A stretch of 63,798 nucleotides of DNA, counting the filler, from Rhabdomonas costata (lineage: Eukaryota), in assembly GCA_019059605.1 (NCBI GenBank). It is 47 parts of 47 records of this genome, joined end to end, with 100 filler letters (N's around TTAATTAATTAA, not from the genome) between each part and the next. Parts side by side here need not be neighbours in the genome. Positions count along the whole stretch, not along the records: positions 34,006 to 35,263 come from JAHMHO010021588.1; positions 35,364 to 36,622 come from JAHMHO010021589.1; 45 more parts are not named here. One strand, given 5' to 3'. Below, piece by piece: positions 5,341-63,798 of this stretch (the first letter of the stretch is position 1; each line of letters begins with the position of its first letter). The notes below the pieces were generated by a model that worked only from the letters and a program-made list of their open reading frames with translations, was not told the DNA's origin and did not search any database. A program made the translations under genes and the position numbers.

Positions 5341-5699
5341 NNNNNNNNNNNNNNNNNNNNNNNNNNNNNNNNNNNNNNNNNNNNTTAATTAATTAANNNN
5401 NNNNNNNNNNNNNNNNNNNNNNNNNNNNNNNNNNNNNNNNATAATTCTTCGCCAGAAAAAATCTTACAAAGTCAAATTATCTTTCACTCAATTGAGATGA
5501 CTTGACTGGCTGACATTGAATTGAACTTGAGAATTTTTGACCTCTCGGCGGGAAAAAACACGTTGAACTTGAATTGGGTAACATTGAGTTGAATTGGGTT
5601 TTTGGGGCACATTGGATTTTTAGATTTGTGCAAGTCTGGGGTGGGGTCCGGTGAGGTATCTTGAGAAGCGAAGAAAAAAATCATGGGATATTCCGGTTG

Positions 5700-5986
5700 G
5701 CGCAACTGGAATGGGACTTCGAGGGGGGGGCTTGTGCAGTCACCTGTCCGGCGACTTCTTGGGCAATTTTCCCCCCGATGGTATTTGTGGGGTACTTCAA
5801 TGACTCCGCGTGCAGCAGCCAGGTCGAGTCGATCCACCTGCCTCTCAGCTGGGGAAGCAGCGTGTGCTCCTGCGCACCAGGTGCCGGGTCGACCCCGAAC
5901 TCCAACCCGCGGGCGACCACAAATTTCAAGTGTGTGTATGTGTATGTGCATGTGCATGTGCATGTGTATGTGTATGTGTATGTGCA

Positions 5987-6059
<73 letters not shown>

Positions 6060-6477
6060 GTGTGTGTGTGCGCTCTGGAGTCTCCGGATTATCGAGCAGC
6101 CGGAGGGGTCTTTGTTGCCTGCACTACGAACGCGGAACGATATTGCGGTGCTTGTTGCACAGCTTTCCAAAGGGTTGTCCGCCGTGTGCGGACAGTGTGA
6201 ATTCGTTTCTGCCAACCTAGTGCCATATTAATTTGCCCCTTCCTCCCATCATCCTTATCTCAGGTGCAACCCATCGGCGTCAACGGTGACATACACGCAG
6301 TACTCGCCCTCCAACATTTGCAACAATTACATTACCCACAACCAGATCACGGTGGGACTGACCTGTACCTTTCTGTCCTCTCTGTACTTGTACGCCAAAG
6401 TGCTTAACTACACCGCCTGCGGTCTGGCCAGTTTCTTCACCCTCCCACCCCCCGCCCTGCAGAATTACAGCCAGTGA
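5700..6477 (+). CDS. Cys-rich uncharacterised protein, last two exons (approx. 5700-5929 and 6264-6477)
   Basis: A GT-AG intron at 5930-6263 joins ...ATTNF-K-CNPSASTVTYTQYSPSNICN... in frame to the TGA at 6477. The 5' boundary is uncertain. Confidence 0.5.
5931..6070 (+). repeat. (TGTGTA/TGTGCA)n hexanucleotide microsatellite at an intron start
   Basis: Directly visible; explains the spurious HIHIHI and CMCMCM ORFs. Confidence 0.97.
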
Positions 6478-6577
6478 TGTCCCGTTGTCCTGTCATTTCA
6501 TGTCAACTCTCGAGCCTAAGGGGAACTGCATTCCTTCTTGACTATCTCTCTATTTGAGACTGTGTCTCTGTGAGTGT

Positions 6578-6703
6578 GCCGTGTGCCAGTTGTGGTGGAT
6601 TCTTCCGAATGTTTGCTTTAATATTTCACTGGAATTCGAGCTCGAATTCCAGTGAAATATTAAAGCAAACATTCGGAAGAATCCACCACAACTGGCACAC
6701 GGC
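6578..6703. repeat. Perfect 126-bp palindrome at contig end (fold-back artefact likely)
   Basis: Centre GAG|CTC at 6640/6641; the arm runs exactly to the contig end. Confidence 0.9.
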
Positions 6704-26634: not shown

Positions 26635-27456
26635 CTCACATCAGCTGGTCGCATGTCAGGCCCTTGGAATCACGGCTAAACTGACTGCGGGCAGAATCGG
26701 TGTTGAAGGGTACGGAAAATACTCGAAGACTTTTTTGTAGTTTCTGATTCACTGGGTCACCTGGTCACTACTTCGGTCCAAGCTTGCACTTCGAGCGCTC
26801 GGTAACTTCCCGGAACCGGACTGAACCTTATAATTTGGACGAATAATAGTTTCTAGGTCTGTGCGATATTACTTTGTTTTAAAGGAATTGAAGGATGGGC
26901 GTTGAACGCTTTCGATTCGTTCCCTTTGGTAACCTTGATCGCACCGTTCTTGGCGTATACATTGACCGCGAGGTTCCCTTTCACTACTTATTATTGCTGC
27001 AGAGTCTGGCGTTTTCGCAGATACGGATGATGGTGAGGGCGAAGCTCCTGGTGGGGCACCGCCAGGAGCTTCGCCCTCACCATCATCCGTATCTGCCAAA
27101 ACAAANNNNNNNNNNNNNNNNNNNNNNNNNNNNNNNNNNNNNNNNNNNNTTAATTAATTAANNNNNNNNNNNNNNNNNNNNNNNNNNNNNNNNNNNNNNN
27201 NNNNNTATGGGCCGAAGGAGATGCGTCCACGGTGCCTGACGAGGTGCGGCGTACCTTTGGTGGGACTGCGTGTAGCACCATCTGACGTCAAGTGTCTACT
27301 CATTCTGAAAGCCTAAGCTCATTGCTCATAACTCCCAATTCCGAACATGATCCTGACCCCAATTCAAAGGTACAGGTGCATCTCGTTTTACGAAAGTTTT
27401 TTTTCATGTTTACCTTAGAGGACTACCTGTCCTTTTGATCCCACAAAAAATCAAAG

Positions 27457-27868
27457 CTGTGGGCGGATATGATGCGGGACTCCCCTGTGGTGGCCGTGCG
27501 AGCGTCAAAGGAGCTCAGCATGAGGCTGGCCCTGCGCAACGCGAGCTGGCCTCGGCCCGCAAGTCAGCCGGGCTCGAGCTCCGCTGCAGATGACGCGGGG
27601 ACGTTTGATGCGTGGGCGAAAATTACGGAGAACTACGCGGGCGAGCAGTGGGGCCGTGAGGTGCTCACCTACCACTTTGACAGGTGGGTCGCCCTTCAGA
27701 GTCCGCTCCTCTCTCCCTGTTTCCCGTTTTCTTCCTTTTAGCATGTGACACCAACGCATATTTCTCCCATTCTTTCCCACCCATGTTTCGTCGTTGCTCT
27801 TCGGCTGCAAACTCCTTAGTTTTTTCACTGTGCTTTGCAGATTATTTAATCAACGTAAAGCTTTTTAG
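27457..27868 (+). CDS. Uncharacterised protein, last two exons (27457-27683, 27841-27868)
   Basis: A GC-rich exon and GT-AG intron give ...EVLTYHFD-R-LFNQRKAF*. Confidence 0.55.
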
Positions 27869-28565
27869 CAGCATGTTCAGCAGCTGGTTCAACCAGTGCG
27901 ATGACAGGAAGGGCATCGAAGCACCATCAGACTGCCCAACCAATAGCATTCGAGGGACCAGAGACCAGCACAAACAACCCAGCCCAACACTGGCACCAGA
28001 AAGGCACCCCGCACACAGACGACTGAACCATGTCTCTGGGGACAGTGAAGCCAGCAAGACCAACAGCATAATGCTGGAGAGCTGCATGACAGCAAGCCAG
28101 TGAAGTCGGAACAAAACCACGTTTGGATGGGCCGACCTCGAGACAGCTACGTCAGCAAGACCAGAAGCCAAGGCGGTGGTGCACAGGAAGCCGGTGTCTC
28201 GGCTGACAGGCGCAGAGCATTACCTCGCAGCATCCCGTCGAATGCCCCATGAAAGCGCGTGTCGCGATACGAAGGAAACAGCGACCCGAATATCACTGCG
28301 GGACCTAACTCAAACGACCGCTGAAGTTCAACTTGCTGGTGAACTGGTGGTTTCCGGTTTATCGGCTTCTGAAGGTTGGAGCTGTTATGTAACATAACGT
28401 TATGTTACATAACAGCTCCAACCTTCAGAAGCCGATAAACCGGAAACCACCAGTTCACCACCAACNNNNNNNNNNNNNNNNNNNNNNNNNNNNNNNNNNN
28501 NNNNNNNNNTTAATTAATTAANNNNNNNNNNNNNNNNNNNNNNNNNNNNNNNNNNNNNNNNNNNN

Positions 28566-29825
28566 GGTTGTTTTTGTAATCTTCTGCTCTGGATGTCCAG
28601 GAAGTCCACAGGACCATCTCCAGAACACTGAAATGAATATCGGATCTTGATCGCTCGCAATACTCCTCTGCAAACCATTGTTTTTAACTTTTTCCCACCA
28701 GAACAACTCTGCAATGTCGTGGGCATTCATCTTATTGTGGCATGGTATCAGAACCACCATCTTGGTTTCCAGATCCGTGACCGTCGACACCTTGTTCACC
28801 TCCAAGCCTTTACCAGAAAATTTCCACGTACATGGCGGCATGGAAACAAAATCCATCGACATAGATTTCCATTTCCTCACTGTCACCTCCAAAACCTGGG
28901 TGTGACATCTCGGTTTGTGGTCCGCTTTGCCTCTTTGGCACAAATTACAAGTACGCACGTAAGCTCGTATCTTTCTTTTGATGTTCTTGAACGTGTACGT
29001 CAGCTTGATCAGGGCGGCCGTCCTGGCCACTACCTGATGACCTGCTGCGGGAGAATCGTGGTACCTGGAAATAATCTCTTGTTCTCTCTGGATTGGTACC
29101 ACAATCTTCCACGACTCCCAAAGTCTGCCATTCGTCGGATCCAAAAGCTCCGCTGTAGTCACGTTGAAGTACATCTTCCCCACTACTGGGTCTAACCAGT
29201 AATCTGGCCACCAATCGTCTGGCTCCACATCTGATGCTACCATCAGTGATGCACAAAGTGGTCCATCAAATCTCGGTGACGCAAAACAAAACTCCAATTC
29301 TATCGCTCCCAAGCTTGCTTCGTCTACTGGGCGCCTAGACAAAGCATCCGCAGCGACATTTTGCCTTCCGGAAATGTTGGCAATCTTCAGCGTATACCTT
29401 TGCAGTCTTTCCAACCACCGCACTTGCCTTGGCGACGGCCTAGGGTTCTTCTGCAAATAGCTCAAAGCCGAGTTGTCCATGTGAACTCTGACATCTGAAC
29501 CAAGCAAGTAATGCCTCCATTCTTCCGACGTGTCTACCAACGCTAGCATTTCTTTCTCATGCACAGGGTAATTCTTTTCCGCAGTGGATAAATTTTTCGA
29601 GCGACAAGCTACCAAATGCATCTTGCCATCTTCCCCTTGTTGTGAAAGCGTGGCTCCAATCCCCACCTCTGAAGCATCAGTGTGAAGCACCATTGGCTTC
29701 TTAAAATCTGGAACCACTAACACTGTTTGTTTCAAAAGTCTGGCTTTGAGCATCTGAAACGCCGTCTCCTGCGCTTCCCTCCACACCCACTCCTTCTTCT
29801 TCTTCATTAAATCCGTCAGTGGGGC
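28566..29825 (-). mobile_element. Ty3/gypsy LTR retrotransposon pol fragment (RT connection, RNase H, integrase)
   Basis: HTDASEVGIGATL, NYPVHEKEMLA, NVAADALSR, HHCC (HDSPAAGH...CNLCQ), SMDFV and SDQDPIF occur in gypsy domain order in one open frame. Confidence 0.97.
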
Positions 29826-34741: not shown

Positions 34742-35421
34742 TTTATGGGAGAGTGTGAGTAAGCAGGGAAGTCAAAGGACTAATAAGAGTCAAAATCCAT
34801 AGCAAGGCGATTCCGGGATTGTTGGAGCATTCAGCAAGATTTCGCGTTCACCTCGAAAACCTTCGGTGGGATGAAAGTGTGGAGTAGAGCAGAGAACCAT
34901 AAAAATCCAGTGAGAGGATAAGGTTGGAGCCAGTTGATGTCTAGCTGATTAGCATGAGATAAAGACCAACCTGAATGGGACAACGCCAACAGCGCAGTAG
35001 CATCCGAAATCTGGGCGCCGGGTAGTGGCTTCCAATAAGCAATAGGCGTGAAGTTCACCTCGGCAAAGAGCAGGACCGGAAAAATACGGAATGGGAGTGT
35101 ACAGGCAGCCAAGTCGCTCGATGTTCGCTGCAACGCTGTACAAAGCTAAAAATACTCGTTGCGGGGCATCCCCCCCAGCCCACTAAACCTTCTCAGGTGA
35201 AAAGGTTTCGGGGAGAACACCGTGGCCGGCAAGCCTATGTACAAGTCTCACAAACCCAAAAACNNNNNNNNNNNNNNNNNNNNNNNNNNNNNNNNNNNNN
35301 NNNNNNNTTAATTAATTAANNNNNNNNNNNNNNNNNNNNNNNNNNNNNNNNNNNNNNNNNNNNGGTGTGGTTGTAAACTTTTGTATTTCCGTTTATATTT
35401 GAATAAGATGAACTGCTGAGT

Positions 35422-35898
35422 AAACAACCATTCAGTGGTGTTTATGTCAGCAGTTCATCTTATTCAAATATAAACGGAAATACAAAAGTTTACAATCACA
35501 ATTATATAAACAACAATGGTAAAATTGAAGAAAAATACTACAAGGGCTTAAAGAAAAATGATAAAACAAGAGAAGAATTAGGAAAATCATATAACAAACA
35601 AGATTTTACTATAAAAAGAATTTCTGATCGAAATAAACCAACACAAAAAGAATATTCTCTTTCTGCACCTTATACAGCTCAATCTTTAAATCCAACTATA
35701 AATACATCCGTAAAAAATCCTTTTCGATTAGTAAATTACGATGATAAATCTAAGAATGTAAATGATAAATATATTGTTCCTACACGATCTAATAATAATT
35801 TACAATTAATAAATAAAAAAATGTTATTAGGTAATGTATTTAATACTGATATATTCGGTAAAAACGTATTTAATGATCCATTCTTTACTGATTTATAA
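35422..35898 (+). CDS. 5'-truncated AT-rich hypothetical protein (putative giant-virus ORF; absent from the supplied ORF track)
   Basis: Uninterrupted ~158-codon frame VYVSSSSYSNINGNTKVYNHNYINNNGKIEEK...VFNDPFFTDL*, N/K-rich and intronless. The 5' end is lost in a fold-back. Confidence 0.75.
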   Translation, partial: KQPFSGVYVSSSSYSNINGNTKVYNHNYINNNGKIEEKYYKGLKKNDKTREELGKSYNKQDFTIKRISDRNKPTQKEYSLSAPYTAQSLNPTINTSVKNPFRLVNYDDKSKNVNDKYIVPTRSNNNLQLINKKMLLGNVFNTDIFGKNVFNDPFFTDL

Positions 35899-35930
35899 AG
35901 ATTACTAGATATACATGTATTTAGTAGTCT
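35899..35930 (+). terminator. Hairpin immediately after the stop codon (Mimiviridae-type transcript 3'-end/polyadenylation signal candidate)
   Basis: AGATTACTAGATATACATGTATTTAGTAGTCT folds into a 13-14-bp stem, including G-U pairs, with a 4-6-nt loop. Confidence 0.55.
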
Positions 35931-35937
35931 CTTACAA

Positions 35938-35945
35938 AAAATTGA
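35938..35945 (+). promoter_or_regulatory. AAAATTGA motif, Mimiviridae-type early promoter candidate
   Basis: Exact motif in the 135-nt intergenic gap, about 90 nt upstream of the ATG at 36034. Confidence 0.55.
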
Positions 35946-36033
35946 AATTTTAACAGTATAGCTCATTAAAATAATAATTTTCGATCAAATAATACTACGA
36001 AAGAATACGTAATTACATTTTAAGTTTATTATA

Positions 36034-36622
36034 ATGGATATTACTGTTCATGATACACTTCTTGCGAAGATCGGTGATATTCGCCGTAAACAAATACTTA
36101 CAAATCAAGATAAAGATATTATTACACAGATTAATAATGAATTGATGCTTATTAAAAATATTAAAATCAATAAACTTGTAAAACAAATTAACAAAATTAA
36201 TGATCGTAAGAAAACAAAAGAAGGAGACAAGACACTTCTTAATATGAAATATGATGAAATTATTAAAATTATTCTTAAAGATGCTGATCCAAATCATGAA
36301 TCAAGCGATGAAGAACAAGAAGAAAATCAGGATGATCTTGATGTTGAAGAAGATGATGATAAGCAAAATGAAACAGAACAAGAATTTGAATCAGTTACAT
36401 CTGATTTTGAAATTGATGTTAAAGAAAAAGGGAAAAAAGTAGTTCAGGTAAAACCTGCATCAAAAGTAAAACGAGTTAAGGCTTCTTCATCATCAGCATC
36501 GACATCAACATCCGCATCCGCACCAGAAAAAGGATCTAAAAAATCACTTGAGAAAAATATTGATGATGAATTTCTAAGAAAGTACAAGAAAATTCAGCAA
36601 GAATTGGTGATTACACAACACA
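36034..36622 (+). CDS. 3'-truncated AT-rich hypothetical protein with an acidic tract (putative giant-virus ORF)
   Basis: About 196 open codons with A/T-ending codons; K/I/N-rich helical N-terminus followed by D/E and S-rich tracts; no introns. Confidence 0.8.
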
Positions 36623-41981: not shown

Positions 41982-42269
41982 AGTCAGTATACGCGGCGGC
42001 CATTGCGAGCAGAATTACGTCAGCCACTCCAACGTAGAATAGACTGAACAGACCCCCAACNNNNNNNNNNNNNNNNNNNNNNNNNNNNNNNNNNNNNNNN
42101 NNNNTTAATTAATTAANNNNNNNNNNNNNNNNNNNNNNNNNNNNNNNNNNNNNNNNNNNNGTTGTTGTCCACCAAATTCATCTTGTTGATACTCCGGTAG
42201 TTTATTACAATGCGCATCTTCCAACTGGAATCCATCAGTATTATGATCAATTGTCACCAGTTACAATGG

Positions 42270-43280
42270 ATCATAATACTGATGGATTCCAGTTGGAAGA
42301 TGCGCATTGTAATAAACTACCGGAGTATCAACAAGATGAATTTGGTGGACAACTACCCACTTCATTGCATCTACTATACGAGACAATCTTTACTTCTCAT
42401 AGCATGACTTCAACTCCGAATGTACCAAATCATGGTGCATACTGACCATTTGTATCGTGCACCTTCGTTCCGTACAAAGTACAAAAAAATTGCCTCCAAG
42501 ATCACATATTAGGTTTCCGTAAAGCCACATAACCTTTCAGAAGGCTACAAAAATCATCTTGAAAACAATACACCTAAACATAAACAATACGTCTAAGACA
42601 TCCTTGTCCACACCGATACACTGGAGACTCCCTGAGACAAGTTTACGACAGGCTCTGCGAGGAGCGATTTTTTGCGGGACATTGGAAGTGCACTTGGGAC
42701 CATCATGAAATCAATTACTGCGACTTAAACCACTAGAGACCAGGAAGCACTCCGTGCTTCGTCAGAGCGTGCACAAATACTTTTTGAACGTGCAAAGTTT
42801 TCTGAGTCTGTGCGGATTCTGCCAGGCATTACGTCACCACTGTTGAACCTCTGGCGGATCTGATGCAAAATTGCTGACAGTGGACATGCTTAACCTGCTG
42901 CAGGCTTTTAATTTACAAAACTGTTTCCTGTTTCACGCTCCAGTACTCACTCACCAGGACGTAACATTTTCTACTGCACGCAGATGCATCAGACGTTGGC
43001 ATTGGTGCCACACTGTTGCATATAGAGGCTCATTGCTTTTCGGTAGTGGAAGCTCAAAGATGCAAAGAAAATTACCCGGTGGACGCGTTTGAACTGGGGG
43101 CATCACAATTTGCGCTCAGATGTCCAGATATTCACCGACGATACAGCCATTATCTATCTCATGAATTGAGCACTTCATCAGAGCTTCAGGTGCGCTGGCT
43201 GTAAGATCATTAGCTGTACATCCAGTTGAACATCTGCATTCCAGGCAAGACTAACACTGCAGGGGACAAAGATCTCACGC
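42270..43280 (+). pseudogene. Heavily decayed Ty3/gypsy pol (RT and RNase H)
   Basis: Colinear remnants across frameshifts and stops: WKMRIVINYRSINKMNLVDNYPL, YV*DILVHT (YxDD site), SFLSLCGF, HADASDVGIGATL, NYPV, QVRWL, IPGKTNTA. Confidence 0.85.
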
Positions 43281-43519
43281 TGAGTTTGGTTGTTCCAACA
43301 CATCTGGTTGCATACCACACAAAAGCACTTGCACTGCTTTCGGTAGTTCAAACGCCGGTTCCAGCGTATTCCAGTGTGCTTGTGCACTCGCAGATTTCCG
43401 CACTATCCACACCCCAACCNNNNNNNNNNNNNNNNNNNNNNNNNNNNNNNNNNNNNNNNNNNNTTAATTAATTAANNNNNNNNNNNNNNNNNNNNNNNNN
43501 NNNNNNNNNNNNNNNNNNN

Positions 43520-62189: not shown

Positions 62190-62362
62190 AAATTTGTCCT
62201 CCGAAGCTTGCCCTTCTTGATTTAGTCCTTTTTGATTTTTGTCCTTTTTCAAATTTTGTCCTTTTTTGATTTTTGTCCTTTCTTGAATTTTGTACTTTTT
62301 ATGAATTTTGTCCCTTTTTTTTTAAAAAATAAAGCTTGTCCTTTTTTGAACTTTGTCCTTTA
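62190..62362 (+). repeat. Degenerate ~17-18-bp tandem repeat (TTTTGTCCTTTTTTGA-like)
   Basis: About nine TTGTCC-cored units separated by T-tracts. Confidence 0.75.
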
Positions 62363-63798
62363 ATTTTGCATTTGGTAATTTTTCAAACGTGTTTTATTTT
62401 CAAAATCTGAAAATTGAACCCTTTTCTTTCCCCAAAACANNNNNNNNNNNNNNNNNNNNNNNNNNNNNNNNNNNNNNNNNNNNTTAATTAATTAANNNNN
62501 NNNNNNNNNNNNNNNNNNNNNNNNNNNNNNNNNNNNNNNTGTTGTTCGTTTGCAAAAAGAAAAGAAAAGAAAAGAAAAGAAAGAGTTTGCGTCCGACCTT
62601 TTGAAGGTACCCAAGCAAGTGTTGAAGCATGCAACAACTTTATGCACAAGCATTCCAGGTTGTAAAATAAGCATATCAGAACGACTTCCTTCAGCCCCTG
62701 TGGCTGCGTCAACTTCCCGAGAAAACCCCCCTCCGAACCACGCGCGTTGCTGTTGTGGCGTCTTTAACCGGGGTTCTGCTGTTCGCCGGACGGACCACAC
62801 GTTCCCATTTAGGGCGGCCATGAACCGAAGAGCACCGCCTGAGCTCAGCAAGGGCTCCCACCCACTCACCTCTGGGCGCAGTGATGGCGCCCGGGTGGCC
62901 ATTCCTCAGAGGCCCGGCCCCTTCGCACCCGATTCCGTCTCTGCCCCTCCGCGTAGCCTTTCGATTCTCGCGGTGTTTGGTGACATGGGGGCTACCCATG
63001 CGGCCGCCCACACCAGCATCCGTGCCGGTGCCTCTATGGTGCACTCCCCATACACCTGCGAAGGTGTGTAATGCAGCAGGGGGAATGTGGCAGGGGGGTG
63101 AAGTGGGTTTGCACTGCCGAAGCTGTGCACTGTGCACTGTGCACTGTGGTGTACAAATTAATGAGGGGAAGATGCTGGGTGACGTTGGCCGGTTTTTGGG
63201 CTTCCAGGTGGGCCGTTCCTGTGCTCTGTCGGTGGCTGCTTGACGGCGTCAAACTTTTAACGCCCTCCAAAAGCCAATTTTAATAGGTACAAGCTCATCT
63301 GTTGTGCAAAGGTTTTTTGTGGTGTAGTTGATGGTAGCGAGGCCCCCAAAACCATCGCGTAGTTTTTTTTTCGGTGTCCCTCCTTCTCTCTCCCAGGAAT
63401 GGTGAAGGCTGGGGAGCCGCAGTTTCCTCTTCGCCCTACTCCCCCTGCTCCTCCCTGCAACCCCAGGTGTTATCTGTGGCTTCGTGACTTGGAGTGGGCA
63501 GTTTCGTGCGTTCTGCTTTCCTCTCTGCGCCGTTTTCCTTTCATTGACTCGCGGATGGAGATGTCGCGGTGCAAGCAATCCCAAAAGGACAGCTGTTGGT
63601 CCCCCATAAACAGGAGCTGTCTTGAGCGGGATTTCTTCTGGCGCGCAGCCAGTGCAAGATGTGCCAAAAACCTCTGCCTTGGACTTCACTGCGACCATTT
63701 TCAGGCCCTTGACTGGATGATGTGTCCCAAACGGCATCCATATCCATCGTAAGAGGAAAGTTAATTTCAGCCTGCCCGCGTCTGCCACCCACCAAACC

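Follow-up and report, generated by a model that had tools for sequence, protein, structure and literature searches.

A low-GC contig in the Rhabdomonas costata assembly with mimivirus-type gene-expression signals: a candidate fragment of a giant virus or its mobilome

Giant viruses of the family Mimiviridae (Mimivirus, Megavirus, moumouvirus, Cafeteria roenbergensis virus (CroV) and Tupanvirus) have AT-rich, densely coding genomes in which palindromic hairpins lie directly past the stop codons (PMC5294985, PMC3542560, PMC4402537). The octamer AAAATTGA is found within 150 nucleotides (nt) upstream of 45% of the genes in Mimivirus and of 35% of the genes in CroV, and the mean spacer in Mimivirus is 157 nt (PMC5294985); in moumouvirus, the octamer lies upstream of 37.7% of the genes, and hairpins follow within 150 nt of the stop codon for 78% (PMC3542560). 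According to a review, the motif and the hairpin help to place candidates in the Mimiviridae more securely, even when these are sequenced only in part (PMC6163669). Bodo saltans virus, a member of the Imitervirales described as the only giant virus isolated from Euglenozoa or Discoba (PMC5871332, PMC8061765), has a GC content of 25.3%, compared to about 50% in its host, a coding density of 85%, 40% ORFans (genes without detectable relatives), the early motif AAAAATTGA and palindromes past its open reading frames (PMC5871332). To date, Asfuvirales alone among giant viruses have been linked to a euglenid, in the form of eroded giant endogenous viral elements in Euglena gracilis (PMC12455990). 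Here we analyze a stretch of 63,798 nt from the assembly of Rhabdomonas costata (GCA_019059605.1; hereafter, the window), in which the contig at positions 35364-36622 carries two adjacent open reading frames (ORFs) separated by a hairpin and by the 9-mer AAAAATTGA; on balance, we favor the reading that this contig is a fragment derived from a mimivirus-like giant virus or from an element dependent on such a virus.

Rather than a single locus, the window comprises 47 separate contigs of 1251-1263 base pairs (bp) each, ordered by size and joined by N/TTAATTAATTAA/N spacers. The GC content of the contig at 35364-36622 is 0.264 (26.4%), compared to 0.418-0.592 in the other 46 contigs; a preliminary description, made from the sequence alone, had put these values at about 25% and at least 50%, respectively, and while the outlier stands, the remaining contigs range from 42% to 59%. 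In 200-nt windows along the AT-rich contig, GC varies between 0.18 and 0.35, without a window above 35% and without a host-like flank. ORF1 (35434-35898, plus strand; 154 codons and a TAA), delimited by the open frame and by alignment with its relatives, is truncated at the 5′ end, and ORF2 (36034-36612, plus strand; 193 codons from the ATG at 36034), delimited as an open frame, runs off the contig and is truncated at the 3′ end. Together, the two ORFs cover 88.5% of the genuine sequence of the contig, that is, the sequence without the terminal artefact described below. The plus-strand frame that contains them has 5 stop codons in 419 codons, compared to 16-71 in the other five frames (29-71 in four of these), and is therefore truly coding. 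The encoded proteins are rich in asparagine and lysine, with low-complexity stretches, and lysine, asparagine and isoleucine jointly make up 34% of ORF1 and 32% of ORF2, as the preliminary description had indicated.

Both ORFs lie in the same plus-strand frame (35434-36612), which is devoid of TGA. Under the ciliate code, in which TAA and TAG encode glutamine, the contig would become one open frame. However, all three in-frame TAA/TAG codons fall within the 46 codons of the spacer whereas the 350 ORF codons contain none of them and encode glutamine by 16 CAA/CAG codons; given this clustering in the 135-nt spacer, the ciliate code was rejected.

The spacer between the ORFs (35899-36033) is 135 nt long, with 20% GC, and shows the order stop codon, hairpin, motif, ATG; the length of the gap, the hairpin starting at the base past the TAA and the octamer about 90 nt before the next ATG had all been noted in the preliminary description and were recovered here. 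The hairpin (35899-35930, plus strand, read as sense RNA) has a stem of 14 bp (9 A-U, 2 G-C and 3 G·U pairs) and a 4-nt loop. Its predicted folding energy as sense RNA is −13.3 kcal/mol, a value equaled by none of 200 shuffles, and no other 36-nt segment of the contig folds as well (−14.0 compared to −9.1 for the runner-up); among 120 dinucleotide shuffles of the 1.1-kb genuine sequence, −14 was not reached anywhere and −12 was reached once. By contrast, the antisense RNA folds at −4.2 (31 of 200 shuffles as good) and the DNA at −3.2, so that, owing to the three G·U pairs, the hairpin is stable solely as sense RNA. Such strand specificity suggests that the hairpin acts in the ORF1 transcript, and we propose that it could be the signal for 3′-end formation and polyadenylation of the ORF1 mRNA.

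The 9-mer AAAAATTGA (35937-35945, plus strand) contains the octamer AAAATTGA (35938-35945), begins 7 nt past the hairpin and ends 88 nt upstream of the ORF2 ATG, for which it may serve as an early promoter. The probability of finding AAAATTGA in the gap by chance is 0.007 from 20,000 dinucleotide shuffles and 0.026 under independent bases. Thus scored, the contig has the motif upstream in one of one complete upstream regions and the hairpin in one of one complete 3′ regions. A second copy of AAAATTGA lies inside ORF1 (35521-35528, plus strand; codons G-K-I-E-E) and is probably there by chance; for the contig as a whole, two copies compare to 0.24-0.43 expected (P(≥2) = 0.067). Across both strands of the other contigs, there are four copies (12911, 50638 and 62410 on the plus strand, 33705 on the minus strand); that at 62410 is a chance copy in a contig with a T-rich tandem repeat. 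The additional copies in ORF1 and in host contigs had been pointed out before.

The layout of the spacer also admits a bacterial interpretation, in which the contig comes from a bacterium with an AT-rich genome, whether prey, endosymbiont or contaminant; the hairpin would then be a terminator or a repeat element, and AAAATTGA an A-tract joined to a −35-like box. Foreign DNA in amplifications of single protist cells is usually bacterial, and two co-oriented genes with a 135-nt spacer, a post-stop hairpin and then a TTGA-containing element before the next gene fit a bacterial terminator followed by a sigma-70 promoter; a TTGAAA and, 19 nt on, a TAAAAT are readable in the sequence. However, the stem is AU-rich (2 G-C pairs of 14), there is no T-tract on its 3′ side (the tail is CTCTTACAAAAAATTG), and the hairpin is absent from the list of called terminators in the terminator scan. 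No −10 box is located at a distance of 16-18 nt, sigma-70-like sites in the contig show no excess (8 compared to 8.7 expected), and none of them uses the TTGA of the motif. A Shine-Dalgarno-like purine run upstream of the ORF2 ATG (...AAGTTTATTATAATG) is likewise absent.

The start of ORF1 depends on the structure of the contig ends. Most of the 47 contigs have a G/T-rich run at the start and a C/A-rich run at the end; in the AT-rich contig, these are the G/T-only segment 35364-35373 and the C/A-only segment 36613-36622, which appear to be primer-derived, presumably from the degenerate G/T primers of an amplification kit. Next to the left end is a terminal fold-back (snap-back) inverted repeat (35366-35500) with 65-nt arms that are 91% complementary and a 5-nt loop, the left arm (35366-35430) being the reverse complement of 35436-35500. 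Such fold-backs, with arms of 16-88 nt no more than 3 nt from an end, were found in 11 of the 47 contigs, the AT-rich one included, and two further contigs have internal ones. Accordingly, the terminal fold-back is an amplification or assembly artefact that affects the dataset at large, and the left arm is an artefactual copy, so that the genuine sequence begins at about 35434. It follows that ORF1 lacks a start codon: of the two co-oriented ORFs in the preliminary description, both stand, but the ORF1 start assigned to 35422 lies inside the artefact. Alignment with the relatives indicates that about 3-45 N-terminal residues are missing. A viral hairpin telomere was considered for this inverted repeat and discarded, since 10 other contigs show the same end feature. 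More generally, snap-back chimeras can produce false ORF starts and false palindromes; other examples in the window are the contigs at 5441-6703 (fold-back at 6578-6703), 27206-28465 (28333-28464) and 42161-43419 (42161-42356).

Matches to cellular genes, named in the preliminary description as the outcome that would count against a viral origin, did not appear: no cellular relatives were found in the searches of both ORFs against protein and genome collections made here. Neither ORF has a relative in IMG/VR (2.9 million contigs, scanned four times), in the JGI metagenomes (one chance match, L001, aside) or in the 185,579 prokaryote species genomes of GTDB, and tblastn against phages (50,697 records) and plasmids gave no match, although these scans used short peptide patterns or BLAST, which distant relatives may escape. 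Sequences in the PDB gave low-complexity or designed-coil matches only, the ESM Atlas gave no usable match, and word-index searches yielded no relative sourced from NCBI or UniRef. Comparison with Pfam, PHROGs and NCBIfam revealed no significant match and no recognizable domain in either ORF; the sub-threshold matches were NOA36 (E = 0.085), phrog_3857 (E = 0.0046, 18 bits) and MCP_Sipho (14.9 bits, with a cut-off of 75).

For ORF1, an index-free HMMER search of 1.84 billion representatives produced three matches, one of them, P0003, spurious: this Enterococcus protein with Ig-like repeats (E = 1.4 × 10−6 over 7 repeats) was dropped after profile comparison gave a probability of 0.03. P0003 aside, no relative of ORF1 among these representatives was sourced from NCBI or UniRef. 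A profile search with a query that included P0001 and P0002 collected seven relatives (P0001, P0002 and P0004-P0008) of 153-167 amino acids, with E values from 1.9 × 10−68 to 6.1 × 10−23. All seven come exclusively from environmental or run assemblies (ENA or Logan), and they are unnamed and lack Pfam domains; one of them, P0005, is encoded on a contig of 490,192 bp. Sequence identity is 36-40% between ORF1 and the relatives and 31-91% among the relatives themselves, and the alignment has 21 invariant columns; the C-terminus NIFNDPFF is conserved and, within it, F-x-D-x-F-F is invariant. This end (35860-35895 in ORF1) resembles the F-x-D-x-F and D-P-F motifs that bind clathrin-adaptor appendages in eukaryotes, and is possibly a hint to a role in host interaction. 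The AlphaFold2 model of the family is poor (mean predicted local distance difference test (pLDDT) score of 45), with six β-strands predicted in residues 1-76, and a Foldseek comparison of this model with BFVD gave no matches at E ≤ 0.001. ORF1 thus defines a small conserved family of about 160 amino acids, rich in asparagine and lysine and with a β-rich N-terminal half, that is named in no database.

For ORF2, no relative was detected in the Pfam, IMG/VR, ESM Atlas, word-index, PDB and GTDB searches or by tblastn against phages and plasmids. The metagenome contig L001 from JGI (73-237) was set aside as a chance match, since only the K/S-rich stretch 129-182 around VKEKGKKV matches. A single-sequence AlphaFold2 model (pLDDT 62.9) is helical in residues 1-84, acidic, serine-rich and disordered from about 85 to 169, and helical again from 170.

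These results bear on the two cellular interpretations of the contig. A bacterial source is favored by the location of an ORF1 relative on a 490-kb contig and disfavored by the lack of relatives in GTDB, NCBIfam, plasmids and phages, as well as by the long acidic, serine-rich disordered stretch in the ORF2 model, such stretches being unusual in bacteria; together with the properties of the spacer, this makes a bacterial source unlikely. Nuclear DNA of another eukaryote with an AT-rich, compact genome (prey, parasite or co-sorted cell) would account for the asparagine- and lysine-rich proteins with low-complexity stretches, for the acidic disordered region in ORF2, and for an ORF1 family confined to run and environmental assemblies with one member on a 490-kb contig. 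However, a 3′ untranslated region, a promoter and a 5′ untranslated region would have to fit in 135 nt, and neither a strong hairpin at the stop codon nor AAAAATTGA is known as a eukaryotic signal. No relatives were found among proteins sourced from NCBI or UniRef, and the ciliate code is rejected by the placement of TAA and TAG. We regard this alternative as distinctly improbable.

An organelle of the protist, mitochondrion or plastid, comes to mind as a source as well, as does a phage of high AT content, organelle genomes and many phage genomes being AT-rich and compact. Yet an Rfam scan of the whole window, all 47 contigs, found no rRNA, tRNA or other match, no Pfam or PHROGs family was significant (phrog_3857 being the best), none of the 50,697 phage records was matched by tblastn, and one ORF1 relative resides on a contig of 490 kb; the probability of such an origin appears to be very low indeed.

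Compared to the described giant viruses, the contig agrees with the Mimiviridae in its AT-rich composition, dense coding and palindromic hairpin directly past the stop codon, and in having the identical octamer no more than 150 nt upstream of the following ATG, the spacer being 135 nt compared to the Mimivirus mean of 157 nt (PMC5294985, PMC3542560, PMC4402537). It differs in that a single spacer is available, the ORFs have no relatives in the named members, and a hallmark gene, an RNase III and a poly(A) polymerase are all missing from the fragment. The fit to Bodo saltans virus is close (26% GC against a background of about 50%, a coding density of 88.5%, the identical 9-mer and also a hairpin; PMC5871332); nevertheless, the contig shows no similarity to any protein sourced from NCBI and therefore does not belong to Bodo saltans virus or a close relative. 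In pacmanvirus, one of the extended Asfarviridae, AAAATTGA is also located upstream of genes, whereas the 3′ ends of pacmanvirus genes bear a T-rich linear motif, WWTTTATTTTTTAWW, rather than hairpins (PMC11788076), and none is present past ORF1. Virophages and transpovirons of the Mimiviridae are small and AT-rich, with compact ORFan genes, and share the promoters of the giant virus that they depend on (PMC6401483, PMC11788076); virophages have, however, been described with late promoters (PMC6401483), and none of the genes of virophages or transpovirons was recognized on the contig with Pfam and PHROGs.

The reading that we favor rests on the combination of a foreign composition, a high coding density, a pair of neighboring genes that lack cellular relatives, a sense-only AU-rich hairpin that lacks a T-tract, and an early-promoter word in place. 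A mimivirus-type virus or its mobilome explains these features combined far better than would a bacterial, organellar or phage source or a eukaryote of high AT content. A content of ORFans is normal for such viruses, as judged from the 40% in Bodo saltans virus (PMC5871332). The contig could be DNA of the phylum Nucleocytoviricota with mimivirus-type gene expression, coming either from an Imitervirales-like giant virus or from a virophage or transpoviron that borrows its signals. Under such an origin, the DNA would have been co-amplified with a protist cell; ORF1 would be transcribed rightwards, and its mRNA would fold into the AU-rich hairpin right past the stop codon; a viral enzyme of the RNase III type would cleave at the hairpin and a viral poly(A) polymerase would tail the ORF1 mRNA; and AAAAATTGA, seven bases on, would recruit the viral early transcription machinery for the transcription of ORF2.

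Several observations weigh against a mimivirus-type origin. According to the Pfam comparison, and as the preliminary description had stated, neither ORF is a nucleocytoplasmic large DNA virus (NCLDV) hallmark gene, namely, MCP, PolB, A32, VLTF3 or RNA polymerase; the viral reading is unproven for this reason, although a 1.2-kb piece could hardly hold such a gene, and its absence accordingly does not exclude membership in the Mimiviridae. Neither ORF has a relative in the 2.9 million IMG/VR contigs or among named giant-virus proteins, and the contig offers a single 3′ end and a single upstream region for examination. The motif lies 88 nt from the ATG, whereas a related motif in metagenomic NCLDV bins is positioned 20-40 nt upstream (PMC6401483); AAAATTGA overlaps a TTGA that resembles a bacterial −35 box and has an A-tract in front of it; and its further copies include one inside ORF1 and four in contigs of normal GC content. 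In addition, the signals are not exclusive to Imitervirales: AAAATTGA precedes 44% of pacmanvirus genes and has been reported in African swine fever virus and some iridoviruses (PMC11788076), and Pithovirus (PMC4402537) and, in part, the Marseilleviridae (PMC5413956) likewise follow the hairpin rule. Finally, the 490-kb contig of the ORF1 family could equally well be cellular. The claim of an Imitervirales-like fragment in the preliminary description is thus borne out with respect to the signals, which are non-random and well placed, and to GC content and coding density, whereas a hallmark gene or a viral relative is lacking and the signals are shared with other viruses. We consider it rather probable that the contig derives from a mimivirus-like giant virus or a dependent element, and go no further given the single spacer, the lack of a hallmark gene or viral relative, the empty IMG/VR search and the uncertain nature of the 490-kb contig.

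Alternatively, the same viral DNA might reside in the protist genome as a giant endogenous viral element instead of being free or replicating. Such elements exist in E. gracilis (PMC12455990), and the other contigs of the window are eukaryotic genomic DNA with a retrotransposon. However, the contig shows no host-like flank (at most 35% GC per 200-nt window), although 1.2 kb could not reveal a junction anyway, both ORFs and both signals are intact, and the elements in E. gracilis are Asfuvirales and eroded (PMC12455990). Integration into the host genome therefore seems improbable.

The 46 other contigs contain 21 open frames of at least 180 amino acids, of which one has a Pfam domain: a pol fragment of a long terminal repeat retrotransposon (28566-29825, minus strand), the frame of which fills its contig (RT_RNaseH, E = 3.5 × 10−35; integrase zinc-binding domain, E = 1.6 × 10−15). 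With a single domain among the 21 long frames and an empty Rfam scan, the background of the window is mostly non-coding eukaryotic genomic DNA. In the contig at 61181-62439, with 42% GC otherwise, a T-rich tandem repeat at about 62200-62370, with units like TTTTGATTTTTGTCC, lowers GC to 0.21-0.24; a host-virus junction was considered for this AT-rich tail and ruled out, the tail being the tandem repeat.

If the contig is cellular, it is an ordinary contaminant. If it is viral, a fragment devoid of hallmark genes can still be flagged as giant-virus DNA by its expression signals alone, and the contig is a lead to a virus associated with a protist group without a known mimivirus-type virus. The more specific proposal, that the amplified protist hosts the replication of an undescribed Imitervirales-like giant virus and that ORF1 marks a conserved but unnamed gene family of that viral lineage, is a speculative one, to which we attach little probability. 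A search of the literature on giant viruses of euglenids and Euglenozoa listed no mimivirus-type virus tied to euglenids. Should the proposal hold and the amplified cell belong to the euglenids, the virus would be the first of its kind, and the seven environmental relatives of ORF1, one of them on a 490-kb contig, would offer a first glimpse of related genomes.

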